Shown here piece by piece: positions 4,157-57,900 of a stretch of 64,000 nucleotides of DNA. The notes under the pieces are model-generated. The model was not told the DNA's origin, searched no databases, and saw only the letters and a program-made list of their open reading frames with translations. The translations under genes were made by a program, and so were the position numbers. Within the stretch, counting starts at the first letter, position 1. Every line of letters starts with the position of its first letter. Source of the DNA: Marsupella aquatica (Eukaryota; Plantae; Marchantiophyta); contig OZ316893.1 in NCBI GenBank assembly GCA_973895155.1, positions 25,533,520 to 25,597,519 on the forward strand. Reading direction: 5' to 3'.

Positions 4157-4909
4157 ATGAAGGTTCTAGTAGCCGTTAAGCGAGTCATTGACTATGCTGC
4201 GAAAATTCGAGTGAAGGCGGATAAGAGTGGGGTAGAGACGAGCAATGTGAAAATGTCAATGAACCCATTCTGTGAAGTAGCTGTGGAAGAAGCCTTAAAG
4301 ATCAAAGAGGCCGGGAAGACTTCGGAGGTAGTGGTCGTTAGCATGGGAGGTCGTCAGTGTGTGGACACCCTTCGTACAGGTCTCGCCATGGGGGCTGACA
4401 GGGCAATTCACGTTGCTACCGATGCCACTCTGTACCCTTTGGGTGTGGCCAAACTCCTCAAAGCCGTTGCAGCTATTGAGCAGCCCCAATTCATCATCTT
4501 GGGTAAGCAGGCCATTGATGATGACGCTAATCAAACAGGGCAAATGGTTGCTGGACTGCTTAAATGGCCTCAAGCGACATTTGCATCCAAGGTGACTTTT
4601 GAAGACAAGGATGCTGTTACTGTGCAGAGGCAGGTGGACGCGGGATTGGAGACAGTCAGGCTGAAGCTTCCCGCAGTTGTTACCACTGATATGCGCCTGA
4701 ATGAACCACGCTATGCTACTCTGCCTAACATCATGAAGGCCAAGAAGAAAACTATCACAAAGATCACCCCGGAAGAGCTTAAGGTGGACGTAGGCCAAGA
4801 TCTGGAGATTCTTCGAGTGGAAGAGCCCCCTAAACGGAAAGTTGGAGTGATGCTTTCGTCGGTGGATGAGCTGTTGGAAAAGCTTAAAAACGAGGCTCAT
4901 GTGATCTGA
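4157..4909 (+). CDS. ETFB: Electron transfer flavoprotein beta subunit (250 aa, intronless CDS)
   Basis: Motifs [51 protein letters not shown] and [19 protein letters not shown]. The ATG at 4157 follows a tgtag acceptor at 4135; the ORF-track start at 4136 is a GTG just inside the exon. Likely 5'-UTR introns lie at ~3256-3890 and ~4035-4135. Confidence 0.97.
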
Positions 4910-21990: not shown

Positions 21991-22372
21991 CCCAGCTCTC
22001 GTTGATCTCTCTGATTCGCTTCCTAGTTTCGGATATCTCTTCCTTCTCTTACTAAAACAACAACAGAGGAATGCGAATTGACTGAGGTCAGCAATGGGTC
22101 GAATACATTCGATTGAGGTCGGCAATTGATTGATTGATTCCTGTTAAGAACTATTGGAGCTGATGAGGATGCAATTTGCAGGAGGAGAAAGGCGAGAACA
22201 GTGAAATGCCAGGAACGAGGATGAGGCTGGCTGACTGTCTGGAATTGTAACGGGGGTTTGTGCACGCGAGGACAGACATGCAAGACTAACTTGTCCGACG
22301 CTGCCAGAAGAATCCGGTGGGCCTAATCCACATGACATGGCGACACAGTCATCACAACAGGTACTGTACTCA

Positions 22373-23191: not shown

Positions 23192-23600
23192 GCAGGCTCT
23201 CCGGAAGATATCACCTACCAGCAGTTATCCAGTGAATGCACTATGCCTATAAGTGCATGGGATATCATTTATGCACTTCTCCATATGTGCATGGTCTCCA
23301 CTACCTAGTAACTGCAGGGGAGTCACTCATGCACGTCTCCATTTGTGTTGTCAGGTGACACACATCAGACTCCCCAAGTCCTCATTGCAGGATGCAAGTG
23401 GATAAGTGCATGAAACTGCTTTATGTACTAGTAGTTTGATCCATTTATCAATAAATGTGTCTTATGTATGTGCTGCACTAACTTATAAATGCATGTGTAT
23501 AGATATAGATGGAAATGCACTGTCTTATGTATTTAGCGTGTAGTGCCAATAATTTATTGTTTGGTGAGGGTCAACTTGCACTTACGCAAACGGCATTTTG
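23192..23600 (+). mobile_element. MITE-like dispersed repeat with CAGGCTC(T/C)CC terminus; inverted copy at ~42680-43438
   Basis: 23222-23295 aligns to the reverse complement of 43050-43128 (gcactatg..ataagtgcatggg..tcatttatgcacttctccat). The terminus caggctctccg matches cggagagcctg at 43428-43438. Confidence 0.6.
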
Positions 23601-23842
23601 ATGCATTTACAAAGGAATTGTGGTAATATTAGGGGACTACGTGGCCAGCCTGCACTCAATGGAATTTCAATGCTACACTTAGACAAGGTTGACTGTACTG
23701 GAAACCCTCATTGTAAGTGCATGTTGACTAAACAAGTAACTAAAATGCAAAAAAGTGATGTACAACATATTCACTTCAAGTTTTCATGCATTGTTTTGGT
23801 ATTTTGGTCACTGTTTAATTTAGTACAGTTTTGATTATGGAC

Positions 23843-27175: not shown

Positions 27176-28204
27176 TTAGTAATACTCAGCCTCGTTCCAG
27201 GATTTCCTGATCAGAGGAACTCCATCATCCCGCCAAAAAATCCGATCCTCACAAAGAGCGGCCACAACTTCAGAGTACAAAAGATGCTCCACCGTAAGCA
27301 CTTTGGCTGCCAGATCCTGTGGCGTGTCATCAGTCAAAACCGGGACAATCCTCTGCGCTAAAATGGGGCCGGTGTCGAACTTCTCATCGACGAAATGGAT
27401 TGTGGCACCTGAAAACCGTGCCCCGGACTTGACGACCGCCTCATGGACCTTCATCCCATAATAACCCTTTCCCCCAAAGGAGGGGAGTAGGGACGGGTGA
27501 ATATTGAGAATAGATCGTGGATATGCTTGCACGAGCTCCGGAGGTAGCAGCTTCAAGTAGCCGGCCAGCAGAACATAATCTATACCCCGATCTCTCAGAG
27601 CAACAACTAGATCCTCGGCAGAAAGGCTGTCTTCTGCATGCTTCGAGCGCGGGTAGGTCAAGACCTGAAGGCCATGATCTCGAGCATAATCGCAGCCTTT
27701 GCAGCCAGGCTTGTCGGAAATCACCACAATGACATCTCCGTATATGGAGTTGTTCAGCGTGGCGGAGTGAAGCGCCTGAAAGTTGGAGCCTCCGCCTGAC
27801 AAGAACACGGCAAGCTTCGATCGGTTAAATCCGCTGTCCGCAGCTGGATCGCCACCAGACGGCGCCGCATTTGCTTTCCTCTCTCTCGCTTCCCGTTCTC
27901 TTTTTGCTCCTACTCTTCCTCCTGCCGTTGAACTTGACAATCTCTCGACCTGATTCGCAACTTTCCAACATCCCGTTCGCCCCCTGGAGCTCGATGACAG
28001 AGTTCCAGACGGAAACAAAAGCCGCCCATTGGAATTAAATCCGAAACTCGCACATCTGAACAGATCTCGAGCATGACAATTCCGTCTCAAACAAGAATTC
28101 TGCGCAGAGGAAGAGCCCTCCGGATCACAACGACCATTCTCGACAAAGCAAACCGGAGAACAAGCGGAGTGGGTTGCAAGTTGAAATCGTAGAATGCTTC
28201 CCAT
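27176..28204 (-). CDS. PUR3: Phosphoribosylglycinamide (GAR) formyltransferase with organellar transit peptide, 342 aa, intronless
   Basis: Motifs LAVFLSGGGSNFQAL, LLAGYLKL, ILNIHPSLLP.FGGKG.YG.KVH and SGATIHFVDE.FDTGPILAQ follow an N-terminal extension of ~125 aa. Homologue of bacterial purN. Confidence 0.96.
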   Translation of the reverse strand: MGSILRFQLATHSACSPVCFVENGRCDPEGSSSAQNSCLRRNCHARDLFRCASFGFNSNGRLLFPSGTLSSSSRGRTGCWKVANQVERLSSSTAGGRVGAKREREARERKANAAPSGGDPAADSGFNRSKLAVFLSGGGSNFQALHSATLNNSIYGDVIVVISDKPGCKGCDYARDHGLQVLTYPRSKHAEDSLSAEDLVVALRDRGIDYVLLAGYLKLLPPELVQAYPRSILNIHPSLLPSFGGKGYYGMKVHEAVVKSGARFSGATIHFVDEKFDTGPILAQRIVPVLTDDTPQDLAAKVLTVEHLLYSEVVAALCEDRIFWRDDGVPLIRKSWNEAEYY

Positions 28205-28737
28205 TGGAAACTATCTCCCCGTTTCCGTCACCCAGCAATCCAAAACTCATGGACCTGAGAGGTGTGACATCAGAGTCACCAGGAAATCGAGAGGATGAAA
28301 AACACGGTGACCATTGTGATTACAGCTCTAAATGAGGAACCGTAAAATCTGCCAAGAAGCTGTTGTTTCACTCAGCAAACAACTCAGAAAACAGAGGATG
28401 AAGTGATTCTCGTCAGCTCCTTGGGTGTGCCTTGCGATGCTCTCCTGTGCCTCACAGGTCCGCCTGTATACTTGCATTTGCATTGCCAAATGCTTTTCTC
28501 AGCATTCTCGTCCTCAGCATTCTCTTCCTTTTGTGTCACTGTATAAAAGTTTGCTCATCACCCGACTAAAGAGATTCTCCTTAGAACGAACAAAGCTCGA
28601 GGAATGCTCTCCCCGAGAGATGACCAAATTGAACTTGTCAACTAGAAGGTGGGTTCCTTAGTGCTCGATCTCATTTATTTAACAAGCTTTTTACCAGGTT
28701 AACCCCAAAGTGAGCGTTATTACACCTGACCCCAACA

Positions 28738-32533: not shown

Positions 32534-33982
32534 TTACAATGGTCCACTACTTTTAGGACTCTCAGGTGGAACCACCCTAGCTCTATATAGACAAATGTAG
32601 GCCATGTGCCAATCACCTCCACCAGAAAGCTTGGTAATCTCTTCTTCCCTTTGAGGAATGGGATTGTCATCATCAAACTCGATCCACTTGCCACTTTCCT
32701 GTTTCACCCAAGCTACGTAGTGCCCAGAGTCGGCGCTTCGCCCCTTGTGTGTCAACACGGATACCAAATCGTAAATCCCGGTCAGCTGTGGCTCCCCTGC
32801 CTCAACTGCTGGTACAGCAGCACCCTCGGACGATGACGGGACGCCGGTCAGGTCTTGCAATCCTTCCTTCTCCTTAGAGTCCTTGAGGCCAGCTTTTACG
32901 TCTTCCATTTCCTGTAAGCGTTTTCGAGGAGATTTGAGCTTCTCCTTCAGCTCATCAGTGCAGAATTCCAGCACGTCCAACACAAGAGGGTAGTCCACCT
33001 TCCTCAAGATCTTCGCCTTCCCAGATTCTCGCTTCCAAAAAAATCGAACAAATTGTACCGTCAAGTACAATGGCAATCGGCTAATCAGAGATTCCTTTAC
33101 AAACAATGCAGAGCGACCCAGAACCGGAGACGTTTTCTCAATTTCAGATACCAGACCCGCCTTCAATCCCTCCACCAGATGATTGACTCCTTGGGAAATG
33201 TGGCATTTCAGGGTGTAAACAGTCTCTCCATCGGAACTTTGCTCCCCGGATTCAGCACACTTCTTGACACTCTGGAAGTCAATTCCGAATAGATACTTAA
33301 CGGTGGCCACGGCTGGACTGTGCTCATCTGCTTGAGACCGGAGCCCCTTCGACAGATTGTACACCAACTGCGTCCAGCATTCCTCTGCGTCCTGTTGCAT
33401 ATACATTCCGGTTCTGTCTTGCTGAGAGAATTGGGGAAACTTGTTTCTCAGCACTTGCAGGAAACCAATTGGAGCTACCGGATACGAACTCCGATCCAAT
33501 TCTTCAAAAATATCTCTAGTGGCAAGAGTGAGCCTGTGCGCCGATACGTCCGTCTCGGCACTATTCGCGGTGCTGTACTTCTGTAGTGCACCTTTCAACT
33601 CCGGCACAGAATGCAGACACTGCAATGTAGAATTCAAGTAGCAGGTGTTGCCCAGATTTCTCAACCCCGCAGTGTATCCCGCTTGCAAAGAGCCCTGCAT
33701 GTCCTCAGGAAGATCTTCCAGAAACACTGTCTTCTCCTTGGGGGGCTCCGGCAGTACCTCTGCCGTGCCCATCATCATCAGCCTCTGCCCGTCCTTTACG
33801 CCGATCTTCGCCCAATCCCCGTCATCCTTCAGCAGGCCTCCCTTGACCATAATCTTCTGTCGCTCAGGGGGAACTCCGGTGAGGTCGAATAGCTGGCATT
33901 TGAACACCAACGGGGGTTGGTCGGTGTCGATGTCCACAGCCGGGAAGAGCTCTTTCTGCCATTTGACGCTCACGGTCGGCAT
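32534..33982 (-). CDS. UBP6: Proteasome-associated ubiquitin C-terminal hydrolase UBP6/7 (USP14 orthologue), 482 aa, intronless
   Basis: N-terminal UBL domain (MPTVSVKWQKE...TGVPPERQKIMVKGG), Cys box GLRNLGNTCYLNSTLQCL, QQDAEEC, His box LTHKGRSADSGHYVAWV, and GGGDWHMAY. First ATG at 33982; the ORF-track start at 34021 is TTG. Confidence 0.97.
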   Translation of the reverse strand: MPTVSVKWQKELFPAVDIDTDQPPLVFKCQLFDLTGVPPERQKIMVKGGLLKDDGDWAKIGVKDGQRLMMMGTAEVLPEPPKEKTVFLEDLPEDMQGSLQAGYTAGLRNLGNTCYLNSTLQCLHSVPELKGALQKYSTANSAETDVSAHRLTLATRDIFEELDRSSYPVAPIGFLQVLRNKFPQFSQQDRTGMYMQQDAEECWTQLVYNLSKGLRSQADEHSPAVATVKYLFGIDFQSVKKCAESGEQSSDGETVYTLKCHISQGVNHLVEGLKAGLVSEIEKTSPVLGRSALFVKESLISRLPLYLTVQFVRFFWKRESGKAKILRKVDYPLVLDVLEFCTDELKEKLKSPRKRLQEMEDVKAGLKDSKEKEGLQDLTGVPSSSEGAAVPAVEAGEPQLTGIYDLVSVLTHKGRSADSGHYVAWVKQESGKWIEFDDDNPIPQREEEITKLSGGGDWHMAYICLYRARVVPPESPKSSGPL

Positions 33983-34119
33983 ACTGCCCTTCCTCTTCCT
34001 CCCGCCTTCAATCGTTGCCAAAGTGGTCGTCGTCTTGTCGCCCCCGATTTACCCGAAGCCACGCCAGGCCTCCTCTCCTCCTCGCTCGTTTCTTCTCCGG
34101 ATGGTTAACCTCCTTCCCA

Positions 34120-34226: not shown

Positions 34227-34859
34227 TACAGTCGCATTTCCGTTCCGTATCTCTCTCTCTTTCTCTCCCTCGATTTGCAAAAATGGAAAATTATGCAAGA
34301 GGAGTCAATCAGCCACTTTCGCACACAAACATCCAGCAAGAACCCTAGACTTATTGCGTTTGAAAACTCATTCACAACGAGGCAATCAGCCACTTCCTGA
34401 CGCAAACCTCCAGCCCGCAACCCAGCCTAATGTATTACATATACGTCTTCCCTCAGAACGCAGCTGCTCCAAATTCCAACCTCCCTCGTCGCTACTACAC
34501 ACAAGTAACTAGACCACATCCAGCGATGAAGGGCTCCTTCGATTCCCGTTGTGCGCCACCACCAGAGACAGCAGCAGCACCACGGAGGGACAGAGCTCGC
34601 TGAATTTCGGGATGTGCTCTCTCTCTCTCTCTCTCCGGCTCCGAGGCTACGGCATGAGTTGTTGTGCGTGTCGGTGTGTACCCCACACTTTGTCAAATGT
34701 TACGTAACGAAGGGACTACGACTGAAATCCTTTCCAAAAACATGCGTTGCTTGCTGTCTATGTACTCCTCTACTCCTCTGCTGCTCTGCCTCTCGTCGCC
34801 TCTTTTGCCGAGCCTGAATTGTACTAGAGACGTGAGTTGTACTTGACGCCCTTGGCAAT

Positions 34860-36210
34860 CGTGATTTTTCTCGTTGGGTGACTTTGGGTGCTTTTATGTT
34901 GAAGAATGCAGAGTCGTGAGTTTTCATTTTGAACTTTTAGGGGCTTTTATGTTGAAGAATGCAGAGTCGTGATTTTTCATTTTGAACTTTTAGGGGCTTT
35001 TATGGAGAAGAACGCAGGGTCGTGATTTTTCACTTCTGAATCTTTGGGGCTTTCATGAAGAATGCAGAGTCGTGATTTTTTGTTTCGAATTTTTAGGGGC
35101 TTTTATGGAGAAGAATGCAGAGTCGTGAGACTTGACTTCTAATTTTTAGGAGCTTTTATTGAAAAAGAATGCAGGTTCGTGATTTTTCACTTTGAAATTT
35201 TTGGGGCTTTCATGAAGAATGCACTCGTGATTTTTCATTTCTAATTTTTAGGGGCTTTTACGCAGAAGATGCAGAGTCGTGATATTTGACTTCGAGTTTT
35301 TAGGGGCTTTTATGGAGAAGAATGCCGGGTCGTGATTTTTCACTTCTAAATTTTTGGGGCTTTCATGAAGAATGCAGAGTCGTGATTTTCCATTTTGAAC
35401 TTTTAGGGGCTTTTATGGAGAAGAATGCAGAGTCGTGATACTTGACTTCGAATTTTTTGGGGCTTTTATGGAGAAGAATGCAGGGTCATGATTTTTCACT
35501 TCGAATTTTAGGGGCTTTTATGGAGAAGAATGTAGAGTCTTGATTTTTTTGTTTCTAATTTTGAGGGGCTTTTATGCAGAAGAATGCACAGTCGTGATAT
35601 TTGACTTCTAATTTTTAGGGGCTTTCATGGAGAAGAATGCAGGGTAGTGATTTTTCACTTCTAAATTTTTGGGGCTTTCATGAAGAATGCAGAGTAGTGA
35701 TTTTTCATTTCAAATTTTTAGGAGCTTTAATGGAGAAGAATGCAGAGTCGTGATACTTGACTTCAAAGTTTTAGATGCTTTTATTGAAAACAATGCAGGT
35801 TCGTGATTTTTCACTTTGAAATTTTTGGGGCTTTCATGAAGAATGCAGACTCGTGATTTTTCATTTCTAATTTTTAGGGGCTTTATGCAGAAGAATGCAG
35901 AGTCGTGATATTTGACTTTGAATTGCTAGGGGCTTTTATGGAGAAGAATGCAGGCTCGTGATTTTTCACTTCTAAATTTTTGGGGCTTTCATGAAGAATG
36001 CCGAGTAGTGATTTTTCATTTCAAATCTTGAGTGGCTTTAATGGAGAAGAATGCAAACTATGTTTAGCTTAGAATTTTTAGGGGCTTTTATGAAGAAGAA
36101 TGCAGGGTCATGGTTTTCACAAGTTTAGGGGTTTTCATGAAAAGAATGCAGAGTGGTGATATTTCTTGTTGTGACTTTGGGTGCTTTTATGATGAAGAAT
36201 GCAAAGCCTT
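34860..36210. repeat. Satellite/minisatellite: ~25 units of ~52 bp organised as ~156-bp trimers
   Basis: The unit aagaatgcagagtcgtgatttttcattt..aatttttaggggcttttatggag has three alternating variants. The variant-C unit recurs at ~35008, 35164, 35318, 35474, 35633, 35789, 35944 and 36096. Confidence 0.95.
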
Positions 36211-37800: not shown

Positions 37801-38504
37801 TTGTCTTGGCCAGAATCCCTACGATGAATACTGCCAAAAGCTCACACGAGAATATTAACTCAGACTGCCACTGACTACTTTGTCTGATATCTACCCGGAT
37901 ATCTATAGTCAAACTATTCTCATAACTATCCAGATGATCATCTTATTCCTGCTTAGACCTCACACTTTATAACTAAATCATATCTGGATTGAGAATAAGT
38001 GAACAGAAGAATTCTAATAATGCATGCTACGAGAGAAGATTCCAAAGCCAATCCACGAGAGATTATGCTTTAGAAGAATAGAAAATACATCTATCACTGC
38101 AGATAATTATGTTTTTTTGTTTTGTTTCTTTCAGAGAAAAAAATAGGAAGCCTATAATAGTTGACAAATGCCACCAATGAGCCCAGGGAAAAGGGCAAGG
38201 GTGGAAATCTGCTATAGAGGGCACCAGAGAACCACACAGCCACCTGAATAGTGGGGTTCAACCCCAGGTTATGAATATTATGAATTTTCAACTACCTTTC
38301 AATTACTATTGACAAAGTAATAGTTTACATGAACTATATGCCTGGAATGTTGCATGTATTATATAGACATGCATAGAGGTACTAAGAGATATGTCTTACA
38401 TGGAGAATTACCCCCTATTACCATGAATGTATTCATATTTGTCTTCAATGAAATTGTCCTAACTACCTTTAAAATTCACTTCGTTTCAAATCCTCCATTT
38501 CATC

Positions 38505-38830
38505 TTTGGCGCTTTTATGGAGATGAATATATAGTCCAGATTTTCTCTCTCTTTGAAATTTTAGGTGCTTGAATGGAGCATAATGCACAGTCCAGACATT
38601 CTCTTTGAATATTTATGTGCTTTATGGAAAAGAATGTACAATCCAGATTTGTGGGGAGTTGTGAAACGCTTGTTGTAACTTTGGGTGCTTTTAAGGAGAA
38701 GGCACAGTTGTGGATTTCCACTTTCAAGTTTTGGGAGCTTTTATGGAGAAAAGTGCACAGTCCATATTTTCTTTCTCTGCTTGAAATTTTAATTGCTTTT
38801 ATGGAAAATAATGCACAGCCCAGATTTGCA
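38505..38830. repeat. Degenerate continuation of the 52-bp satellite (~6 units)
   Basis: Recurrent gcttttatggag(a)..aatg.acag(t)cc motifs at ~50-60 bp spacing. Confidence 0.7.
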
Positions 38831-41800: not shown

Positions 41801-44800
41801 AGCTAATTATTAATCAATTTTTACCAATTATTTGCTTTTGTGAGAATCAAGATGAGTCAATTATCATTTGAGTCTGCAGTCAGATTCCTCTTGGGATCAA
41901 TTCAATTCAAATTGCGTTTCCATCACCCTGAAACCCTGCTGTTGCCATTGAGCTTCTCTTCAAATAGCAGTCACTAAAGTCCCATTGATGAATCCATTCC
42001 CTCCTCCCGCAATGTGTCTGCCGTACTTAATCACTGTGGAGGGCAATTCTCATTCACACTCTCAACAGTCAAAGATTGTCCAGAGAGTCTTTGGAATCAT
42101 CAGCCATTCCAAGAAATCCCATCCACTTAGAGATTTACATGTGTTGCACTTTGGACTTGCCCGTGATTACATTGAATCAAAGTCAATTAACCTGGGTCAA
42201 ATTTGACTACTGGTTCAAACTCCTTTCAACGATGTATGAAACGTGATGGCAGTTTACATATAGCAGGGGCCTGACAAAGTTCAGGAGAAAAAAAAGCCAA
42301 AACCCTGCACTGAACAGTGGATGACATATGCAGGTAGGTTTAATGTAATGAAAAGCTGTTACAAAGATAATTGTTGGTCCTTAGAATGAGGTTTTGTATA
42401 CACCATAACCCAAAAAAAGTGTAATCTCACTCTAATAAGGGAGGCAACCAAAGAGCCAAGAGGCGAGGAGCCAATCAAGGGGAGCACCTCTAGAACAATC
42501 GGGAGCAAAAGGCCTAAAACCTTACTTATCTGCAAACTGAAGAGCGTGGTAGAGCTTCAAGGTGGATTGCATAGGAGGGTCTAGCAAAGGAATCTGTCCA
42601 GATACCCTAGAACAATAAGGAATTCTTCTTTTACTCATCTATATTTATGTTCAACAGGTAGTTAGAATACTACCAGGCATAAGTGCACTCAGTGGGTAAT
42701 TGCAGGGGTTGGTCGTGTAGTCCCCTAATATTATAACATTTTTCTTTGTAAATGCACCAAAATATACACTGTCTGTAAGTGCAATTCAATGTCACTAAAC
42801 AACAACTATATAAGCACAGTTATGTCTATGAAAGTGCACATGCATTTATCAATTCCTGCAACACATATGTTGAAAGCATCTACTATATAATAAGTGCAGC
42901 CCACAACTACACATGGTAGTTTCATGCACATATTAAGTGGAATTGTGCATTAGAGGATTTGGGGATAAGGAGTCCGACGCATATGACCTGGCAAGACACT
43001 TGCCAAAGTGCATAAGCTATTTCACATGCATTGTATGCACTTACAGGAAAGTGCAACTTGCCCACATGGAGAAGTGCATAAATGATGCCCATGCACTTAT
43101 GACATAGTGCAGGTTGTGGATAAGTGCATTTTCTCAGGAAGGCAGGTTACCGGAATGTAAACATTTATGGAGGCCCTTGATATTCCCATAATCTATTGCC
43201 CGGAAATGAACTTTTTTAGGACAGAAATTTGACTATAATGTATGTCTAGGCAAGGGTTCTAGCCTAACAGTGCTCCAAGAAAGCTCACAAAACTTTTATG
43301 TTTACTGTCTATCAAGTTTTCTTCATTTTCTGTTCACAAGATTGTTGCTAGTCAAGTTTTCTGAGCTTTTTGGTCAAAAGGTTAAAGGATAGTAACCCCA
43401 AACCAAACCTGCATTATCCTATACTTGCGGAGAGCCTGCGCTTCAACAGGGTATGCATTATCCAATACTTCCCCTGCCGATAATCACACATCAAAATCGA
43501 GATCAAAATGTGATGCATAATATACAGTGTGCACTCGCTAATTTAAAGAAAATAAAGACATTTTCATGGTACAGAATGATGTCATACACAATATATGTCA
43601 TAGTTTGTGTGCAATTATTGGGCCTCCAATACTTCAGGGGAGCCTGTTTGTGACAGGGCCCCAAACCCGATAGTAATTTAGTGATGACTTATAATTGCAT
43701 ATATAAGTAGAAAGACAAGTAGGTGTAGTAAAAGTGTTTGGATTTTCAAATTTTTTTGATTTTTGTTAGTTTTAATAAATGGATGCGACAACCAAAGGCC
43801 GGAGTTGAGAGGGGTGCCGGGCGGTGATGGATGACAAGGGAACCATTGAGGGGGTACAAGGAGGCCACAAGGCATCCCAAGGACTTGGTGCCAAGGTGTG
43901 GGCATCTTGGAGGGGTGGGGGCTGGTCGGAGGCTCCACGTAAGGCGCAAAACGGGAAGAATGACCAAAATATAGAAAACATTAAAACTTAAAATAGACTT
44001 GTTGCGCTAGTACTACTCCAAACATGGTCATGTTTGGATTCATTTTAAAGCTCTCAATGAGCCCCATGCGAAAATGTGGTTCTCTAGTTGATTTTAGGTC
44101 TATATCAAACAGTGACATCTTGAGGGACCTCAATGCTCGTAAAACGGCAAACTAGACAATCTTGGAGTAGTGATGGTGGGAGGGCCCTTAGAACGAAGGG
44201 GTTCCCACACTTGTGTTCCCCTTCACCCTTTGTGTGGTCCTCACATGGTTTTTGCTCTCTTTCCCTTCCCCACTCCGTAGAGGGGCACTCCGTAGAAGAA
44301 CCACTCCGTAGAAAGGGCACTCCATAGAAGAACACATTTGTAGAAGGGGCCCTCACACTTTCTTCCTTCCCTTTTTCTCTATTCTCACTTGTGGGGTTTC
44401 CACCCATACCTAAACCCTAAACCCTTTCCCTCTTGTGCTTGCTTTCAACGTGTGTACGGACCCTGGTTATACGAACATCAGATTTTCAACCATCTCAAAA
44501 TCAGGAGTCTACGGGCTTGTTGGAAAGAGCTCGCTGAGCTGAATCCAACGATGTGTCACACGGCCGAAATGGAGCTAAGACGGGGGAGATAGAACAGATC
44601 ACATTTTTTGAGAATACAGGGGTTTTGAGGTCGTACGGACGTCCGTATGGCAAGAGGTCCCGGCTTTGGGAAGGAGGAGGTAGCAGCACATATGGAGAAC
44701 CCGTGATCCGTGTTTTGCAAAGCCGGGCCCCCCTGATGTTGTACGGACGAAACGGAGGGAGACGGTGCCCCATGAAAAGTTAAACGATCACATCTTGGCC

Positions 44801-45808
44801 GTTTGACCTCCATTTTGTGCACCGTTTATGGAGCCGTGATCAGGAAGAGGAGGGCTCCTCAGATATGTTTTCAGAAGTGAATTCTGAGAAAATTTTAGTT
44901 TCGACAATTATAGGGGCCCCCTCTTTTTACAACGGATCGGTGATGGCGATCAAGAGGATTGAGGCTGGTAAGCAGGGTAAATAGATAGGATAGGAGGTGG
45001 TGGACTCAAGTGAGTCCTTGTTTAGTGGAGTGGTATCCACTCCAATTGAGAGTGATGAGGAAACCAACTCACGGGGCTCAAGCCATGGCACCGTGAGTGA
45101 GGAGGAGGACTAGGGTGGCCGTACGGACTTGGTCGTACGACTTCTTGACTTTGAAAACTTTTTGGAAATGGGCACTCACGGGCTTGTTGGAAAGAGCTCG
45201 CGGAGCTGATTCCAACAAGAGGTGGCGCTCCTCAAACGGAGCCAGGATGAGCAAGTTCAAGCTCGACGAAGTTGGTCGGTATGGGAAACTAAAACGACCA
45301 TAACTTGGTCGTCCGATGTCCGTTTTGGGTGCGGTTTGGTGATTCATGATCAGGGGGAGCAGGGCTACCCAGGAGTGAGCTCAAAGGTGAAATCAGAGTG
45401 ACACCTAGTTTTGGCAATTGCATGGCCTATTATATTTTCACGATTTACAAAGTGATTGCGCCGTCGAAGGCACCGTCGGTCCCTTAGTTAGGTAGGGTTT
45501 AGGGGTATGTGTGTGCCGCATACCGCTAGGGTTTAGTGATGTTTACCTATTGGTGATAAGGTTTTAGCGGCGCTGCTAGGGTAGCCGCCATCGTGGTGAC
45601 CTCGTGAGGGGTGCTTTGGTGTGTTTGTTTCCAGTATTTAAGGGGAGAGCCCCGGAGTAGTTAGGGGGGGAACTCAGTGTAGTGCTTTGATGCTTTTGAG
45701 TAGCGTTTGTGAGTAGCGCACCGATTAGGAGGAGTTCAAGCCAGAGTAGTGAGGTGGAGAACGTAGCACTTGTCACCGGGAGGCAGGAGTTGGGCAGACG
45801 GCTGGAGG

Positions 45809-48800
45809 TGTGGTGCGTCCCATGGCTTCCTAAACCCCAGAAACCCCCCTTCACAAGCCGATTCCCGTAGGTTTCGCGTTTGGCGAGGCCATTTTCGCGG
45901 CTTAGTGGCATGGGACGCTACTAACCTCCTTCTACTACTACTATTAACATTTTACATATATATACTGGACAGATCCTTCATCGGGTCATGAGATACGTAG
46001 CCGGCCTAACCTAGGCCTTCCCTTGTCTTCCCCTCCTTCTTGTTAGGTATATTTGGATTCTGCCGCCGGAATGATCCCCAATAGGCTTGGTTAAGCCGCT
46101 AAGACCTTTCTCAGCTCGACACATCCAACTCTCACTCCCTTGCTTACTTTCCTTCATCTATTAGTTGATGTGGGCACTCTTCATACAAGTTAATGCGACA
46201 CACAAATAGCAAAATGACTCCTTCTGACTGAGTCATACCATGCACTTGCCATACAAACAGTACATCTCATACACAAGCTCTGCAAACTAAGCCGTGAGGC
46301 CAACTCTATTCAGTTCTTAGGCATGAGGAAACATGAATATACACAAGGGTCACTGTATGACTAACCGAGAGCTTCTCTTACTACTTGATCCTAGCCCGGC
46401 TGGTGCAACTAAAAACTTGCTAAAGAAGAGGCCCTGAGCTCCCCGCTGCCCAAGTACTTATCCTGGTAGTGGATCCGCCTAATTCTTTGTAGCGTAAGCC
46501 TAATCTACCTAACTGAATCTACCTATGTACAGCGAGGCAGGAGTACAAGTGTTGCTCTTACCAGTGGAACCGCCATCCCACTAAGCTAAGTGTCAGAGCC
46601 GCCTCCTGGTCCTGATCCTAATCCTAAACTTAGAGATCTGAGCCCGCCCTGCCCCCTCACGCCTTCTCCCTCCACGTCCACCCTCCTTGAAAGGAGCGGC
46701 CCTCCACCACCATCATGGCAGCGGTGTCTGTTCCTTAGTGGACGCCCCAACGCTTCCTCCTCAGCCACTACCGTAGGTTCATTCTCTGACAGATTACCTG
46801 CCCTTGACTAAGTCAACTCTCCATCGGCCTGACTGGGTCCACCCCCGGCATCGGCATTGGCATCGGCTTCAACATCAGCCTCGGCTACGGCCTCAACCTC
46901 GGCTTCATTACCGAGTATCCTGGCCTCGGCTTTGTCATCCCCTTCTTCTAGGGTAGTTGGATCCTCTGCCGTAACCCTGCCTGAGGTTGGTGCTGGGTTT
47001 ACCTCCTTGGTCACCACGGCCTATGGAGCCGTATTAGTCCTTGACCCTGAAGGTTTCCGCTTCTTCTTTTCTGGTTTGGCAGTTGGCCCCTTCCCCTTCC
47101 CACTTACTTCCGGCACTGGTGCAAATGGCGCGGCTTGTCCTTCGGCCAGTACCACTCCTGGTAACTTAGTGGCCTCAATTTGAGTTGGCCCTGATGAAGC
47201 CAAACACTTAAATACTGCGGCTTGTTTCTTTAGGCGCTCCGTTTGGTTGTCGGCTCGTCGTTGTAAGTTCTCTAGCTTCCGCGTGCTTTCCTCCAACTCT
47301 TCCTTCACTTTGTCCAGGTCCTTGCGCGCCTCCTCGAGCTCCTTCTGGGCTTCCTCCAATTCCTTTTTAAACGCAGCTCTCTCCTCCCGGGTCGCTCTTA
47401 ACTCCTTGTCGAGCTCTACAATGATGACAGACTCCATCTGGTTCATCTTGGCGTAAGTCTGATCAAGCATATTGTCCTTCTCATGCAGGTCGGCTTTGAA
47501 GCTGGCCGTCAGTGACGCAAGCTCCTGCTGCAGCGCAATAATCCATTGATAGGATTTCCCTAACTCGGCCTCCTTCTGCTCAAGGGCTCCACGGATAACC
47601 TCGAGCTCCCCCTTCAATGCCCTTTCCCTTCTCTGGGTCTCCGCCATGGCCCGGTTGTTGGCTGTTATGTGGGCCTCCTCTGCATCCCTCAGCTCTCGCT
47701 TCCACTTCTCCCGCTCCTTGATCGCATTGGCCAACTCTCCTTGGGTTCAAGTCAGTTTATTCTCGATAATCCGATTATCAGACTGTGCGGTATCCAATTG
47801 GCCCTGCATGATATTTAGCTCATGCCGCTTAATCCGCAGCTCATCTTGGGCTTTCTTGGCCGCCCTCAGGTCTTTGATTTCGGTTTCCCTTGCCCTAAGC
47901 CGACGGATGACCTCGTCCTTCTTGCTTCTTTCCAAAGCCACCGCTTCTTCTAATTGGCACTTCTCCAACATCTCCCTCTGAAAAAAGGGTCCTTGCTCCA
48001 ACTCCTCCCCAAAGATGCTGAGCGCCAGCTCTCCACACATTTCCCCGTACTCCATGGCTCTATTTTTAGCATAGGTGGAGGAAGTAGAAGTCATCGGCAT
48101 CATCCACCGCGGCCTTTGTTCCCAAGCCGCCTTGCGGATCTCTTCTATTGTGGCTGGAGGGATGCTTCATTTTTCTGCAAGCCGCCTGATGTCCTCTGGC
48201 CATTCTCCTCCTGGTAAATCCTTTTCCCTAGCCAGGGTTGCCTCCTCTTCTTCCCTGATTCGCTCCTGAAATTCCTGCACCGTCTGTTTTATGCCGTCAA
48301 AGCTCGGGGGAGCGACATCTGGTGGGGGAGACTCGGGGCTGCTCTGCTGGCTTGGGTCTCCTTGAACTACTCTTGGGAGCGTGGGGATGAACCGGCCACA
48401 GGTCCTTACTCCTGGAACATGATGATCCGACCCGTAGCCGGAGTCATCATTGCTGTAGTCCTCGGCTTGGACTACCGGCTTCTCCCGCTGTTCTCCTGGT
48501 TTTGTCGTGAACATGGCTTCACCTCTCACCGGTCTTGGTTCCTCCTCCGGCTTCCGTGTTGATCTCTTGTTCTCCTTGTCGTGGCCGGGAGCTACGGCCT
48601 GCTTCTCCTCGGCTTCAGGACTTGAGGCTCCTACATACATTCGGACTCCCGGCTCGTGTTCCGGCCTCCTTCTCTCCTTGACCCCAGTAAAGGGGTTTTC
48701 CCTTGTAAGCCGGCTTAGGCCTACCTCTGGAGCAGTGTCCTGCATTGGTGCCGTTGCCGTTGCTGTTGCTGTTCTCTTTTCCTTCTCCAGCAATTTCAGC

Positions 48801-50489
48801 AGATTCTGCATGCCTGGTTGCTGCATCGGCAAGTCCTCCGTCCTTGGCCTAAACACCTGCTCGATTGTAGGACTGTCGGGCGGGTTTGGTTTCTCCGTTG
48901 CCGGCCTCTGTTCCAGAACCTCCTCTGGTGCCCTTGCCTGTAGGGGAAGTACCGGGGCAAAGGTCTTACTTCGGGCATACCGGCATAATAGCGGTACGTG
49001 ATAGCCAAGCCGGGACACGCTTCCCTTGCCGATCACCAACTGTTCTTCCTTCAAGATCTTCTTTAGTTGAGTGAGGAGGTAACCATTGTAGTCCCGGCTT
49101 GGGTCTGGCCTCTCTGCCAGATAGACCTGTGCCTTGCCGATCTCTGGTCTCGGCCAGTTGCAATGCATGGTCACCCGCAAGAAATCGATGATCTCTCCTA
49201 TATGCGGGTTAGTGCAGGTGTTTCGGAAGAAGCCATTCTTTGTTGAAGGCCCGGGAAACGACCGGAACTCCTTGTCTGGCAAAGTCTTCCTGGTATCTAC
49301 CTTGGTCTTATTGCCCTTCGGCAAGCCAAACACTTCGGCAATCACCTGGGGAGTGAGATAGAAATCCTTCCCATACACCCTTGTGGAATTGGTCTCGGAC
49401 TCCCATGATCCCATAAATTCTAGTAAGTCTGAATCCGGCACCTCCGGCTTCAGCCACGGTAACCTTACGAAGGCTTCCAAGCCGGATCCGGCCATGAAGC
49501 CCTGGTATTTCCGAGTCTGCATAGCCGTAAAGCATGCATCCTCCTCCCGTGCAAAGTATAATTGCACTTCCTCGGGGAGAATCGCCGCCCAGCCTTTCCA
49601 GGTGTCATCTCTTGTTGGAATGGCGTTGATGGGGTCGACCTCCTCCTCCTCGGCTTCTCTCTGCCTCCTGCTCTCCTTTTCTGCTGGCTTCTTTGGTGCC
49701 GCCGACCTCGTTCTTTTTGCCGGGGTGGCCTCTTCGTTGTTGTTCCCCTTCCTCTTCATCTCGGCTGCCGTGGATGTCTCTCCTAGCACGGTTGCCTTTG
49801 TCCACCCCTCCGTGCTACCCTTCAACTCCCAGTGTATGTCGTTGCAGCGTTTGATGGCTTCGCGGATGCCGACGACTCTGTCTTCGCAAAACAGCAGGTC
49901 GTCTAGCTCATTGCCAATAGGCGTCCACAGGAATTCAGCCTTGATGAGTTCTCCTCCTAAGAAGACAACTTTCTGCAGCTCCCACAATTGGGCGAGCTCC
50001 TGCCGTTCTCGAGCTGCTCTCTCCGATTCTTCGTCCTCATAAGTCCCAATGTACTCAGTTGCCCGTTCGAACAGGCATCCCCAAAAATGTGCCGCTTGAT
50101 TGACGTTGCTCATACCCTTCTTGAGTTGATAGTCAGTATCTGTTCCCACCCTGAGCGCTTGCCTAAGCAGTTGACAGTAGTTGGCCGCCCGTAGTCGCCT
50201 GCCCAGTTTGTGTTTGCAAATGAGCCACTATTCCTCGCGAGCGGTCCTTACCCCTCTCCTCCTCTGGTTCTCCCTCCCGTTGGTTACCCCTAGCCGCCGG
50301 CACTTAGCGTGCCCTAACCCTAATCGTGTTCTCTCCCCTGGCGTCCTTACTTTCGGCCTCGGCTCGGGTTCCATAGTCACCCTTAATTGTTTATATTTTC
50401 CTTATTTATGTAACTATACTAAGGTGTTTCTAGGGTACACTTCCCTTTTCCCCTAAAACTAGCCCAGTGATTCCTGGCTAGGCATCACA
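45809..50489. mobile_element. 4681-bp TG...CA element (giant ORF-bearing solo LTR or non-autonomous integrase-mobilised element)
   Basis: Termini TGTGGTGC / GCATCACA (7 of 8 inverted match) and a perfect 5-bp TSD GGAGG at 45804-45808 and 50490-50494. No paired LTRs, PBS, gag or pol inside. Confidence 0.85.
46586..50374 (-). pseudogene. 1263-codon retrotransposon accessory ORF (PMD/plant-transposon-like domain, low-complexity linker, long coiled coil) with five premature stops and no frameshift
   Basis: ATG at 50374 (MEPEPRPK...). ORFs 48167-50149, 47747-48103, 47021-47734, 46808-47017 and 46586-46768 are all in the same frame. Motif LLEFMGSW...VYGKDFYLTPQVIAEVFGLP and an E/K/L/A heptad-rich region at ~47200-47960. 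Confidence 0.8.
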
Positions 50490-51911
50490 GGAGGCCGGGT
50501 TGTCTTTGCATGTGTTACGGGAAACACGAAGAGATATGGATTTGGCTTGAGGTTCCAATATTTTGTGTGTCACTTGTTGTTGCTTGTGTTGTTTGTTTTC
50601 CTCCCCTAGTGCATGTGATCGGTTTCATTGTGGAAACAATTGCCCTTGTCACTAGTGTTCAAATCTTATTGTAAACATTTGTATGCTTGCCCATGAGAGG
50701 GGGGTGGTGACACCACTCACCCGGTGGGCATGAGTTGTAGATGGTAGGGCCAGTCCCTTGGACTTGATCAAAAATGGAGAGACCAGTTGGTAGACCTCGT
50801 GGTAGACTTGATCAAAAAGTACACTTCCGGGAGCGGAATCAAACATACTCATCCTTAGGTGTGGAAATCCTCCAAATAACGTCCCTTCACGACCCCGTAA
50901 TACGATACCAACGGTTTAAGCGAAAAAATATACGATTTGCACGTATGAATTGTTGGATAGGCAAGTGACACTGTTGTACACAATATATGTCATATTTTGA
51001 TGTGCAATTATAGGACCCCAATATTTCCCGGCGCCGGTAATTGCACATCAAAATATGACATACATAATGTATGACATTGTTCCATCCATGATAGATGTCA
51101 TTATTTTCTTTAAATAACTGAGTGCACCTTATATTATCACATTTTGATGTCTGAATATCGGGACACCAATATTCTAGGGAGCCTGCACTTGCAGTTAGAC
51201 AGGGTAGACTGTAGTTTACTTTGTGCAGAACCTCATCATCCCTACGGTAGATTAGGGTACAGGAGTCAGTCGACAGAAACGTTGCCTCCCGTCCGATGGG
51301 AGACCGTTTGAATTTGAATTCGGGCTTCCCCCTCCCCCACGACTCCGTCCTCTTCTCCACTGCTCTGCTGCTCTGCTGCAAACAAGCTTCGAATCGCTTG
51401 CTCGAATGCCGTCTGCTGTTGTGGATGAACCGACGCAGATTTGCAATCGTTTAGGATACACTTTCAGTCGACGCAACTCACTGTTTTCCCGACGGAAAGA
51501 CCACGATATTGATCCGTTCGTAAGCTCGACGCTCTCTTCTCTGCTCCTCGCAGATGGCGGATCGGTTTCGGTTTTGGTTTTCGATTGCCGTGCTTTCTCG
51601 CAGATCTGCTGAATTTGCCGATAGCTTCCGTTCATTCCAGGTTTGATTGTGATCGTCGGCTGTTTTTTCGCTTTGTGTTGGAAGGTTTTCTCTCAGCGCG
51701 TCGTCTTTCGGAGGGTGGACAGCGAGAGACGGGAGATGATGTATTGGTCACACGAACTACACCTTCAGAGGATTTCTTTGTATAGTTAGAGGTTGGATTT
51801 CAGGGGCGTTTACGGCTATGTTCCTCCAGGTGGAAGAGACTTGCCAGAGGGAAGGATGAAAATGAAAGTATGAGATGAGGACAATTTGTCGCTGAAGACA
51901 ATATTGGTAAG

Positions 51912-54900
51912 ATGGAAGTTGTGGAGGGTCAGTCGCCTCAAGTAAATGACGAAAAAACAATCGACGAGACCACCGTCTTTTTCAGTGAGAATGGCACTGT
52001 TTCGAAGAGGCAGAGGAGGAAGTCTCTGGGCAGACGGGTGAGCTTTGCGGAGGCACCGAAGTTGCACATCTTTGCTCGTGACGATGAATACGTTACTCCC
52101 ACCCGTGCAACAAACGGTGCTGGTTCTCCTCATAGGGTAGGAGGAGAGCGACGGTCACCCAGGCTTGCTGCGAAAGTGGTGGATGCTGATAAAGAGAACC
52201 GAGTATTGGCTTCCAATCCTGCTCCAAAGCGTGGGAGAAGAAAGGGGGGCAGTAAGCCCCTCGCTGCTCGAGAAGAGGAAGACCCAGCTCTGAAACCTCA
52301 TAATTGGTTGGATGCCAGAGACCCTTTATCACAGGCTGGGTACTCACATCCTCTACATTTCAAGTCCTTTGCATTCCACCTTGCTCAGGGATTGCTGAAA
52401 ATATGCGTGACCTCCAATTTACGGAAATGTTTTGCTTTTACGAGACTGGAGTTTGCCAAACCTTCTCGTTCTTGCATTGCAGAGGGCCTAAAAATTGACA
52501 CTGAAAAGTATGGAGCTGAATGATATCATGAATTGCATGGGAAAATTTTGGTAGCGCGAAATTGCAACTCTATAGTTCGTCTCAATTTGCGTATTATTTG
52601 CTCCATTTTGGTTTTTGTCAGTCTGGCGAAATTTGGCACAATAAGAATTCAAGCCTGTCTGTTTTTACGATATCGTCAATCTACTTCTCTTGTCCGTTTG
52701 TGTGTAATATAATGTCTATATCAAATTGAAAAGAACAGGGCAACATCTCTTTCAAGGATTCTGTCACCAGCCCTTGAAGAAGTTTGATGAATTACTTCTC
52801 TACGTTCCATATACAGGGATGATGAGAACACTGGCCCGGTCGACCTGCGCCACTTATCCTTCGATCAACAGGAAACTGAGATGGATGAGGACAACCTGAC
52901 GTTGGACAGTACCACCTTCGCTCTAAGGTCCCTTCAGCAGATCAGAAGTGTTGAATCAGCAGCTGTAGTTCAACTTGACACGAACAGGCCGGGAGCTGTC
53001 AGCGCAGACGAAGATGGGGTCCTTGATGAAGAACATGACCTCGAGGAAGTGCTGGTTAAGGACATGAGCTTTACCATGAATAAGCCTGTTCGTCGGCGAA
53101 AGCCTGTCAGAGAATCCATCACAGGCCTTGAAAGCACGAGCAGTGATACTGTCATGAGCATGAACATAACGATGCTAGTGTCCAGACGTCATAAAATGGC
53201 TCAGATGCTTGTTGGTGGTGACAACATTAATGTCGACGTGGAAGAAGATTCAGTGACGGTAAGCCCCCAGAACATCCCTCCTCGGAAGTTCATGTCCCGT
53301 GGTACTAGGGAGGATAATTCTGCACTAGTTCTCTATTCAAACGATATGCAGAACGGTCCAGCGAAGGGACCACTGGCTGAAGATGTCCGGGCTTTTATAG
53401 AGGAAAGATATGGTGACCTTGGTGACGACACCGGTCCAGTACAGCGACACTTCCAAGGCGCATTGAAATCACCACTCGGAGGCATACCAGGGGCTAAAGA
53501 TCTCCCGGCTCAGTTAGACGAAAACTTTGGTGACGGTGGTGACGAAACTCAAGTGCAAATGGAGAAAGATTCGATGACCGTAAACCCCCAGAAGATCCTT
53601 GCTCCTCGGAAGTTCATTTTGGATGGTAGTAGGGATGAGAATTCTGCAGAAATTATCGGCTCACACAATCTCCAGAAAGGTCGAGCGCCGGTACCACGCG
53701 CTGACGATGTCCGGGCTCTATTAGATGAAAGATTTGGTGATCTTGGTGAGGGCACCAGTCCAGTACAGCGAGACGTCCAACGCGCATTAAAATTACCACT
53801 CCGGGGCACGCAAATACCAAGAGAGGAAGATCTCCCGGCTGAATTAGAGGAAAAATTCGGTGACGGTGGTGACGACATTTATGTACAAGTGGAGCAAGAT
53901 TCAATGACTGTTAGCCCCCAGAAGGTTCCTCCTCCTGGGAACTCCATATTGCATCGTAGTAGGGATGAGAATTCTGCAGAAATTCATGTTTCACAAGATC
54001 TGCAAAACGGTCCAGCGCTGGTACCACGAGCTGAAGAGCTCCGGGCTCTACGAGAGGAAAGATCTGGTGAACGCATTGGTGACGACACCAGTCTAGCGAA
54101 GCGAAACTCTCAAAGCAGATTAGAATCACCTCTCCAAGGTATCAAAATACCAAGGGCTGAAGATCTCCGGGCTCCACTTGAGGAAAAAACTGATAGCAGT
54201 GGTGACGCACTAAAATTACCACTCAAGGGCATCATTGTACCAAGGGTTGAAGATGTCCCGGCTCAATCAGAGGAAAGATTTGGTCGTCACCTTGTTGACC
54301 TTGATGAAGACACCAATCTCACTAGAGGAAGTGGGGAAAGTCTGGACCCTATTGCCACCGTGGACATGAGTTTCTGCTCTCCTAGATCCGTGGGTAAGGA
54401 AGACCGGTCCATTACGATGGGCATACCTTCGCTAGGGCAACTACTTAGAAAGGATGAGGATGAAGAGGATGAGGAGTCGTCGTCCATAGGTCACATAGAC
54501 CGGAGTATAACTATGGGTATACCTTCTCTTAGGCACTTAATCAGAGAGCAAGAGGAACATGAGGAGATGGGGGTGGAGGAACAAGTGGAAATTGATACAA
54601 AGCACAGGGCAAGGGAAACACTCAATTCGACTGAGGAAGTAGAAATGACGTTGACGGGGGAAGAGTTTATTGGGATCGACAGCAGAGCCACCATACAAAT
54701 GGAGGAATCCCCTGGGCCGAAGTTTGCAAAGCACAGAGCAAGGGAAACACTCAGTCCAACTGAGGAAGTCGAAATGATGTTGACGGAGGAAGAGTTTACT
54801 GGGATAGACAGCAGAGCGACCATAAAAATGGAATCTCCTGGGTCGAATTTCGCAAAGCACAGGGCTAGACAAACACTCAATCCGACTGAGGAAGCAGAAA

Positions 54901-57900
54901 TGATGTTGACGGAGGAAGAGTTTTCGGGGATAGACAGCAGAGCGACCATAAAAATGGAGGAATCCCCTGGGCCGAATTTTGCAAAGCACAGGACCAGGGA
55001 AGCACTCAATCCGACGGAGGAAGCAGAAATGATGTTGACAGAAGAAGAGTTTTCGTGGATCGACAGCAGAGCGACCAGGACAAAAGAGGAATCCCCTGGG
55101 CCGAATTTTGCAAAGCACAGGGCAAGGAAAGCACTCAATCGGACGGAAGACGCAGAAATGATACTGACGGTGGAAGAGTTTACGGGAACAGACAGGAGAG
55201 CGACCATAAAACAGGTGGACTCGCTTGGACCGACTTTTGCAAAGCACAGGGCAAGGGAAATACTCAATCCGACAGAGGACGCAGGAATGGTACTGACGGA
55301 GGAACCAGTCACAGGACTGGACAGCCGAGCAACCACCAATCATGAGGAATCTCCTGGACCGATCTCTGATATCTTTGCAATGACGAGCACAAAGCTCAAT
55401 GGAGGTGCCTCCAATATGGATGGCAAGAAGTCGAACAGGAGGATCATTTCTTCGGACTCACTCGAGGCTACAGAAATGATGTTGACGCGGGAAAGGTTGT
55501 CAGGAATAGACAATCGACCAACTGCCCATCTTGAGGAATTCACGGGACCGGATTATGATAATCGTGCAATGAAGAGAGCAAAGTTTGAGAGAGGTGGCAC
55601 CTCCGTGGATAACAAAGAGTCCGACAATAATTGCTATCCTGCAGTTGGCAAATGGTCGACGACAGAGGACAATCATTTCTCCACTGCACTGGAGAGCGTC
55701 ACGCCCCAAGTTCCGCGCTCCAGTGATCTTCTTGGAGCGGAAATGAAGTCACTTCACTCCACACCTGTTAGGCCAGCTCGTAGGAGTATGTGGATGACCC
55801 CTCCGTCTTCGGTGATTACTGCAAGAGCTAAAGATGAATCTAGCCCAGAAAGAGAAGATGATATTTACGACACAACAGCTGCTATAACTGAAAGAATTGG
55901 AGAAAGAATTGGAGAGGATGGAGAAGAGAGCATCAGCGCTACGAAAGTGTCCGTGGAGGAAGAAGATGTCCCCCATCTTATCATTAAGAGCGAAGACACA
56001 ACAGCTCTTATATCTGAGAGAGTTCCGGAGGATGAAGAAGAGGGAATCAGCGTTACAAAAATGTCTGTGGACGAATTTTTACAACATGCAGAGGTTCTTT
56101 GCTTTCTCAGCATTTTTTCCCCCTTTTGAGGAGCATTTTGCCTTTTCTCGTCTCCTTTTCTAGCTGATGTTTTGTGGATTTACGGGTGCGATAGCTTATC
56201 ACTCTGCAAAGCTAACGACTGATCTAGTCTCCCACCCGTAGTTGGTTTAGCCAGGCGTAGCAATCCGGAGTTCATATTTTCGAAAGATTACCATTATGCT
56301 TAAGCTTGAATAATCTTTCCGAGTTCTTCATCGTTTTATTGGACCAGTACGCAACCATGCTTCTACAGTTGGGGCATGACGATGATTACTATTTTGGCTG
56401 ACAGGTCCAGTTCTCTCTTGGGCATCAAGGTCCAAGGGATTTGGGCAAAGATCCATCGTTGGTTGAGACTCACCACGTGCGTTCGCTAAGTGAGATCTTC
56501 AATTTTCTATGTCTCGTCAAACCACAGGTGCACCTCGATTGCCCATTAAATGATGTTTTTTATGAGGCTTTGTCACCTCAAAGAACCTTTTAATTTAATA
56601 CGTTAGAGATCGCATCAGATTTTAAGCTGAATGTCATGATGAATTCCAGCTTATAATCATGAGCGATGCATGCGCCGAGCTGCACCATGAAAACTCCATC
56701 AAAGCTACGGCAGTGACGGAGCTCGAACAGCCACTGACAGCGATATTTTCCAACTTTCAAGTAAGAACCAGATGAAGCACATTTTTCAACTTTCACGTAA
56801 GAACCAGATGAAGCACTTGCATTGGAACAGTCTCGCTGTTGGTTTCAACTGGCAAGCTGACACTTTTGGTGAAGTTTCGTCAATTCAGAAAGCACCTGAG
56901 GGGGAGAAGCAGCGACTAAGAAAGCAACTTGAAAGAATTCAGGGCAATTACAGGTAAGCAGGCAAGAATTTACTAATGCCATGACCTCATTGTAGATTCT
57001 GGAAAAAAACAGACCCTTCAAACTTTGCTTATTGTGGCCTCGTGGAAAGTTCGCTGGCAGAGAAAGATCGGATCCACTTCCAGCTGATAGTGGAAAACGA
57101 CATTACCAAGGAATTACTCAAGATGAAGGACAATATGATGGTAATTTTCTCTCGCTCTGTGTACTAAGCCAAATGTTTCTTTCGTTTCTTCTTTAAAGAG
57201 AGACACTCGTCTGTAGAATAATAATTGTTGAGATGTGAATCGACGTGAATTGTTAAGTCGGCATGGCAGCAATTGATTTAGAAGTACCTGCGTTTGTGCA
57301 GTACTACGTGGAACATATTCAAGAACAAAGAAACATATTTCAAGAGAAGTGCTGTCGGCCATTTCGCTGTCTTCAATCGAGCCTTTCTTCGAGAGATGCG
57401 AATCTGGAATGCATTTCGACCTCGCAGTCAAAACTATCTACTGTAAAGCACCTCCGAACAACAGCTAATCTCGAGAGGATAGAAGACCTGGTATACTATC
57501 CTCCGACTGGCTTTTCCCGATTGAGTCGTGGTATGTACTGAACATTCACATGGTATCTATAATCCTTCCATGAGGAATGCCCACTTGACTCGGAAAATTC
57601 GGCTCGACCTTGTGCAGAAGAAAAGACTTGAGGATCTGAAATCTTCACTGGAGTTAAAGTCAGGCAAGTCACGCCCAAGGGAGCAGGTGGTGACTCCTCT
57701 GGCCCGGACAGTATCGTTATGATGATTGCATGCTAGGTCTTGGTCCTCCCAGGCTAATCTTAACACGAAGATATTTCATTTTTTAGAATTTTATCCCAAG
57801 TTTAGCCTCCTGCATGCTCCGTCTGTTCTCCAAAACCAGTGCCATGTCTACAATTAAATCTTCCAATTATAATTTTTTGTCGTTGAATATAGATGTGAAG

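Follow-up and report, generated by a model that had tools for sequence, protein, structure and literature searches.

A TG...CA element of the liverwort Marsupella aquatica, likely a solo LTR, that is largely occupied by one decayed gene

Plant Gypsy elements and the Marsupella unit

Long terminal repeat (LTR) retrotransposons of the Gypsy type can carry accessory open reading frames (ORFs) in plants. According to the consulted parts of the papers cited here, these ORFs are internal and their function is unexplained, and one of them, gene23 of Grande, is nuclear and has its own promoter (PMC7264820). Domains of Tat, Athila and Phygy are also present in a liverwort genome (PMC12885004). In this study, a window of 64,000 nucleotides from the liverwort Marsupella aquatica (contig OZ316893.1, positions 25,533,520 to 25,597,519) was analysed, and all coordinates below refer to this window. 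At 45809..50489 it holds a 4681-bp element with TG...CA ends, which is probably a solo LTR; the 4.7-kb LTR of its Gypsy-type family would then harbour an accessory gene for a predicted nuclear protein. Long LTRs and accessory ORFs are known separately in plants; a gene inside the LTR would be new. Searches of the open-access literature listed no ORF inside a plant LTR and no liverwort solo LTR; outside that scope, a precedent may be present in Repbase, in subscription papers, in the supplements of PMC11963269 or in the element tables of PMC6317226.

Retand elements, which belong to Tat, have LTRs of 315-1194 bp and antisense TRP28/SMC ORFs between pol and the 3' LTR, and the consulted parts of the source place them in flowering plants only, with recent copies in eudicots and monocots only (PMC11963269). 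The Marsupella unit is similar in its 5-bp target site duplication (TSD) and in its large accessory ORF with a possible transposon-type domain and a coiled coil (PMC11963269, PMC7264820). An own promoter and a nuclear role, as in Grande gene23, are likewise proposed here (PMC7264820). On the other hand, the ORF of the 4681-bp unit lies between the unit's own ends, and the Retand domain PF04195 has no match in its protein. The Tat/Retand-type affinity suggested by an earlier reading of the sequence alone (the sequence-only reading) is therefore not upheld; judged on ORF position, LTR length and PF04195, the unit is not Retand.

In most plant LTR lineages TG...CA ends are combined with a 5-bp TSD, with frequencies of 95-99% in Athila, Ogre and Retand, and non-chromovirus LTRs reach ~5 kb (PMC6317226). 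Extra ORFs (eORFs) encode a PMD domain in 57% of Ogre and an ATHILA ORF-1 domain in 16% of Athila elements, so that the 5-bp TSD, the LTR length and possibly the domain type liken the unit to Ogre and Athila (PMC6317226). The rice elements Retrosat2, RIRE3 and RIRE8 are similar in having LTRs longer than 3 kb (>3.2 kb) plus an extra ORF of unassigned function; they differ in the position of this ORF0, which precedes gag-pol and was used as a query separate from the LTR, and the comparison is one of descriptions, not of sequences (PMC3485330). A protein-coding frame inside the LTR itself is found in mouse mammary tumour virus (MMTV), with sag in U3, and in human immunodeficiency virus (HIV-1), with part of nef in U3. 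These are vertebrate retroviruses with unrelated and far smaller proteins, and the likeness is an analogy only (PMC12789967).

Boundaries, insertion site and copy family

The unit begins with TGTGGTGC at 45809 and closes with GCATCACA, which finishes at 50489, and its ends match as inverted copies at 7 of 8 bases. It is directly flanked by GGAGG at 45804..45808 and again at 50490..50494 (both read on the plus strand). Judged from sequence alone, these ends make a weak case. The frame is bracketed by fourteen TG..CA pairs that have a 5-bp repeat, where 1000 dinucleotide resamples give 8.7 on average, and 4.8% of these resamples contain a pair whose termini match at 7 of 8 bases. Such pairs are thus common by chance, and the boundaries could enclose a fragment of a larger repeat or a host pseudogene, an explanation that is highly improbable and is largely refuted by two observations described below, the contigs of the empty site and the break at 45809 that runs through the family.

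Seven of eight public runs (five studies) contain part of the stretch, and the contigs of five were compared with a 6.7-kb stretch around the unit. Among the 15 joints listed of 133, at least three, in X1, X2 and X3, skip the whole unit, and one of these empty-site joints skips exactly 4686 bases, which is the unit plus one TSD copy (4681 + 5). In X1 and X4, a contig departs from the window after 45808 and passes straight into right-flank sequence, with GGAGG present once. This shows that the TSD arose at insertion, and that the unit was inserted into another repeat whose other copies are empty. The boundaries and the 5-bp TSD are genuine, and the insertion is of the integrase type. The TG...CA ends and the perfect GGAGG duplication that had been read from the sequence are thereby backed by these contigs.

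Other copies of the element share the left end. Of the 32 listed pieces (of 701), 22 start exactly at 45809 and 28 within 45807-45809, and summed contig depth climbs 5- to 25-fold across this position. The loose flanks found there are mutually unrelated (5-12 contigs per run, agreement 0.41-0.51). Copies with other boundaries would have spoken against the proposed ends, but at the left end the family-wide break coincides with 45809. Between 688 and 27,734 contigs per run match the 6.7-kb stretch, mostly 90-99% alike, and depth is highest over the unit, although summed depth is not taken as copy number. The unit belongs to a large multi-copy family with subfamilies.

Several observations concern individual copies and the host sequence. 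A contig of X1 joins position 48391 in the middle of the ORF to 45807 at the left end of the element (depth 349) and probably represents a copy nested inside another copy of the same element. Contigs of organisms A and B have an identical flank length of 627 bases before the left terminus, which suggests an insertion common to both. The host sequence at 43650-45808 and 50495-51070 is itself a multi-copy repeat by contig depth, for which clean TG..CA ends were not found. Contigs over the junction between host and element have depths of 179 (X1) and 133 (X2), whereas long contigs that look unique have ~16-66; the filled site may thus have been amplified or been hit more than once.

The gene and its protein

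The minus strand of the unit holds a frame of 1263 codons, running from ATG 50374 to stop 46586 (46586..50374), which occupies 81% of the unit. The frame has remained in register, with six stops compared with 29-62 in the other five frames and ~55 expected. In the sequence-only reading it had been described with this span and share of the unit, which stand, but the frame is not open. Five internal stops, at codons 49, 736, 876, 1118 and 1189, had not been mentioned there; they make the gene in this copy a decayed pseudogene. At least one of the five is not common to the bulk of other copies.

The first ATG is also doubtful as a start. A TATAAA at 50390..50395 on the minus strand, a candidate promoter by its motif, lies 16 nt upstream of ATG 50374, which is too near for the transcript to include this ATG. 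The next minus-strand ATG is M88 (50113), where homology to related proteins begins (at about codon 90). The first methionine of relative P0012 aligns with M88, and relative P0021 reaches further upstream. Because of the TATAAA spacing and the onset of homology, M88 appears the likelier start, and the frame would then fill 75% of the unit.

Small insertions and deletions (indels) in other copies are distributed as expected if the frame is maintained in the family. Among the 12 rows listed of 45, six of the eight distinct indel places lie outside the frame; of the two inside, one is a 3-base change and the other lies five codons before the stop.

Relatives of the frame protein were found with phmmer among 1.84 billion representatives: 21 at E<=0.001, the best with 42% identity (E 3e-53), covering codons ~90-490 as two conserved blocks. 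Two of ten representatives that were looked up, and a third relative from a separate search, carry a species name; all are from Calypogeia fissa, at 22-30% identity. Calypogeia is a leafy liverwort, and these three relatives point, though weakly, to a bryophyte host; three neighbouring host ORFs had no exact-sequence match in the collection searched. The first block is an N-terminal conserved domain of no recognised family (49790..50113, minus strand, ~codons 88-195), with 30-40% identity to four relatives. The second is the main conserved domain (48965..49597, minus strand, ~codons 260-470), and the two are not repeats of each other. Between them, the translation shows a basic patch (49700..49759, minus strand), with a similar patch in relative P0006, which we take to resemble a bipartite nuclear localisation signal. 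The encoded protein is accordingly predicted, from its sequence, to be nuclear. Towards the C-terminus a coiled coil is predicted from composition at codons 811-1055 (47210..47944, minus strand), proline-free and 67% A/E/L/K/Q/R. Longer relatives share the layout of basic patch, domain, low-complexity linker and C-terminal coil-like stretch; the coil itself shows no sequence match to that of relative P0029 (E 0.44).

The layout proposed earlier, with a K/R-rich patch, a P/E/K linker and a coil-like stretch of 245 proline-free residues, is thus recovered, whereas its PMD label is not, as the main domain has no Pfam match. In a Pfam check for PMD, Transposase_28, Transposase_32 and SMC, nothing scored above cut-off. 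The profiles of PMD, Transposase_32, ATHILA and DUF1985 gave no match above the curated cut-off, and Transposase_28 (PF04195) gave none in the window frame or in 27 further family proteins. The ATPase head and hinge domains of SMC proteins were not found by Pfam either, and the coil region has only generic coiled-coil matches, all below cut-off. In the ESM Atlas, the neighbours of the main domain are DUF1985 (0.86) and a cluster in which PMD makes up 14% (0.85); those of relative P0002 are Transposase_32 and ATHILA (0.84). The features in common number 119-133. These nearest families match those reported in eORFs of Ogre, Retand and Athila (PMC6317226). The main domain may therefore be of the plant-transposon accessory type (PMD, Transposase_32, ATHILA or DUF1985), as a lead from these comparisons.

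Structure prediction added little. The two AlphaFold models are poor (pLDDT 43.9 and 42.0); fold searches with them gave no match at E<=0.001 or Z>=5, and a profile search gave no solved relative. A word-indexed protein search with alignment A1 returned two Calypogeia proteins only, and nothing was returned for residues 60-490 of the X-read protein or for longer forms of alignment A2; these are weak negatives, silent on a fusion to gag or pol. Protein-based locus searches found no locus.

Origin of the unit and its surroundings

The left arm (45809..46585) is non-coding, is covered well by other copies and has many small indels. Pfam gave zero matches in six frames of the left 790 bp and in seven other-frame ORFs over the gene, and no gag or pol domain was found in the frames of the unit that were scanned; elsewhere in the window the scan for gag-pol remnants covered 11 long ORFs. 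Neither end recurs within the unit, no terminal inverted repeat (TIR) beyond 8 bases was found, and motifs resembling a primer binding site (PBS) had no match directly after either end. The lack of a second LTR, PBS, gag and pol, which had been noted before, is thus borne out. Rfam gave no match within the unit, and no tRNA was found in the window. A hairpin of 113 nt is predicted at the left terminus (45811..45923, plus strand; -47.4 kcal/mol, z -3.81, one of 200 shuffles equally stable), while the fold at the right end is not significant (z -1.1). Searched as a two-motif pattern, the left hairpin matched 23 loci of metagenome contigs, but blastn and tblastn showed no similarity of these to the element; genome and viral contigs had 0 loci.

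Taken together, these features are as expected of a solo LTR. The unit has TG...CA ends with a short imperfect inverted repeat (7/8) and a TSD, within the 4-6 bp range, that was made at insertion; it is without internal region, polypurine tract (PPT), PBS and second LTR; and both of its flanks belong to one host repeat in the empty-site contigs. The combination of TG...CA ends and a 5-bp TSD, being the rule in most plant LTR lineages, further supports an LTR.

Two other origins have to be weighed. The unit could be a stand-alone, non-autonomous cassette, moved as DNA in its entire 4.7-kb length by an integrase-like DDE transposase supplied in trans, and never part of an LTR-gag-pol-LTR element. 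TG...CA ends do occur among integrase-like DNA transposons (Ginger and some GingerRoot); these transposons are single units and may carry extra gene sequence (PMC6839031). In addition, every long flank seen at the left end is unrelated to the others, and hairpins adjoin both ends, of which only the left is significant. However, the reported TSDs are 4 bp in Ginger1 and 6 bp in Ginger2 and GingerRoot, compared with 5 bp here, and GingerRoot TIRs of 100-150 bp contrast with the 7/8 inverted match of the unit (PMC6839031). Pfam found no DDE transposase of this kind, whether in the main frame or in those other frames that were scanned, although a non-autonomous member would not need one. The sample of flanks is also small and insensitive to a common internal region, and such a cassette is considered unlikely.

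A rearranged derivative of an ordinary OTA-type element is judged rather improbable. Here the accessory ORF would have been internal, as usual, until deletions joined it to the outer portions of two shorter LTRs and left the original TSD in place. In its favour, Retand, Ogre and Athila commonly have internal antisense ORFs that combine a transposon domain with an SMC-like coil. Summed depth in X2 and X3 is also higher over the non-coding left 780 bp than over most of the ORF, which would suit a separate, shorter LTR. In X1 and X5, however, the depth of the conserved domain equals or exceeds that of the left arm. A single deletion should also have left an inner copy of one end, which was not found. 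Furthermore, many contigs carry differences, 28-49 letters from the ends, on either side of stop 46586, and others span 50339-50445, so that many copies have both arms joined to the ORF without a break.

Several points weigh against a solo LTR carrying an accessory gene. The family-wide break is seen at the left end only, the right end being defined by the empty-site joints of one insertion. The short contigs of the public runs show neither a full-length element nor paired LTRs, a PBS or a PPT. No flank dominates among the loose ends of the left terminus, nor do these have a PBS or PPT sequence in common; these contig counts under-weight a collapsed internal region, since unique flanks yield many contigs and a common internal region few, and the left-flank result does not decide LTR identity. 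Either orientation of the LTR is possible. A palindromic TATA-like run at 45957..45964, recognised by motif only, fits both strands: read on the minus strand, transcription would start just before the hairpin and the entire gene would lie in U3; read on the plus strand, the gene would lie antisense within a very long R-U5. As for the protein, the main domain has no Pfam match even at E<=5 and all Atlas scores lie below 0.9, which leaves the accessory type as a lead. Of the 22 single-base differences listed in the frame (40 of 913 differences were listed for the stretch), 15 are non-synonymous and seven synonymous, each read singly, and one would create a stop. This small and biased sample gives no sign of purifying selection; many of its differences mark the decay of the window copy itself, and linked changes are ignored. 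Finally, accessory ORFs of plants are reported in the internal region and not in the LTR in the consulted parts of the literature (PMC11963269, PMC7264820, PMC6317226, PMC3485330).

The solo LTR is nevertheless preferred, and its history could be as follows. A full LTR-gag-pol-LTR element would have been inserted by its integrase into another repeat, and recombination between the LTRs would then have deleted the internal region, with one LTR remaining between the TSD copies. A promoter of its own at the right end (TATAAA 50395) would drive the gene, with translation starting at M88. In the weakest step, the protein, with its transposon-accessory domain, basic patch and coiled coil, might bind the chromatin of the element and aid transcription of the family in trans, by analogy with what has been proposed for the antisense ORFs of Retand. 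The chromatin or anti-silencing role raised in the sequence-only reading is equally tentative. The gene inside the LTR would be carried twice per full element and once per solo LTR. It is slightly better than an even chance that a bryophyte Gypsy lineage moved a complete accessory gene of 1,100-1,260 codons into its LTR, where it would be doubled in each element and left behind, together with its promoter, whenever a solo LTR forms.

The formation of solo LTRs is generally regarded as disarming retrotransposons, because it removes their genes. If the preferred origin is correct, an LTR that is at least three-quarters one gene escapes this, and the main route by which the host deletes retrotransposons would scatter hundreds of gene copies for a trans-acting helper protein across the genome. 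Such a family would also be a natural high-copy system for probing the unexplained accessory ORFs of plant Gypsy elements. For annotation, gene-bearing solo LTRs look like ordinary intron-less genes, and the unnamed Calypogeia gene models may be such. Paired copies flanking gag-pol would make this an LTR retrotransposon with a whole accessory gene inside its LTR, whereas a stand-alone cassette would introduce a new type of non-autonomous element whose ends resemble those of an LTR.

The remainder of the window contains further repeats and several gene-like frames. Two pairs of related inverted sequences are present, 43499-43617 / 51038-51151 (81%) and 23221-23640 / 42717-43127 (64%), the first of which includes a small hairpin at 50968-51080 and has the look of a miniature inverted-repeat transposable element. 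A Copia-type reverse transcriptase fragment lies at 453-1190 (plus strand; RVT_2, E 1e-20), and an array of ~53-bp units at 34800-36210 is followed 2.3 kb away by a diverged second cluster at 38485-38830. Long uninterrupted frames with Pfam matches encode an electron transfer flavoprotein (ETF) subunit (4136-4909, plus strand), a Usp protein (21271-22143, minus strand), a formyl transferase (27176-28210, minus strand) and ubiquitin with a UCH protease (32534-34048, minus strand). That the UCH protease occupies a single frame deserves attention if, as we assume, the related plant genes are intron-rich. On the plus strand, a frame with an RVSF motif (51879-52523) is followed by one of 1112 codons (52791-56129), which has three repeats of 107-110 residues and several of 43 residues and no Pfam match; the two together presumably resemble a kinetochore gene of the KNL1/Spc7 type.

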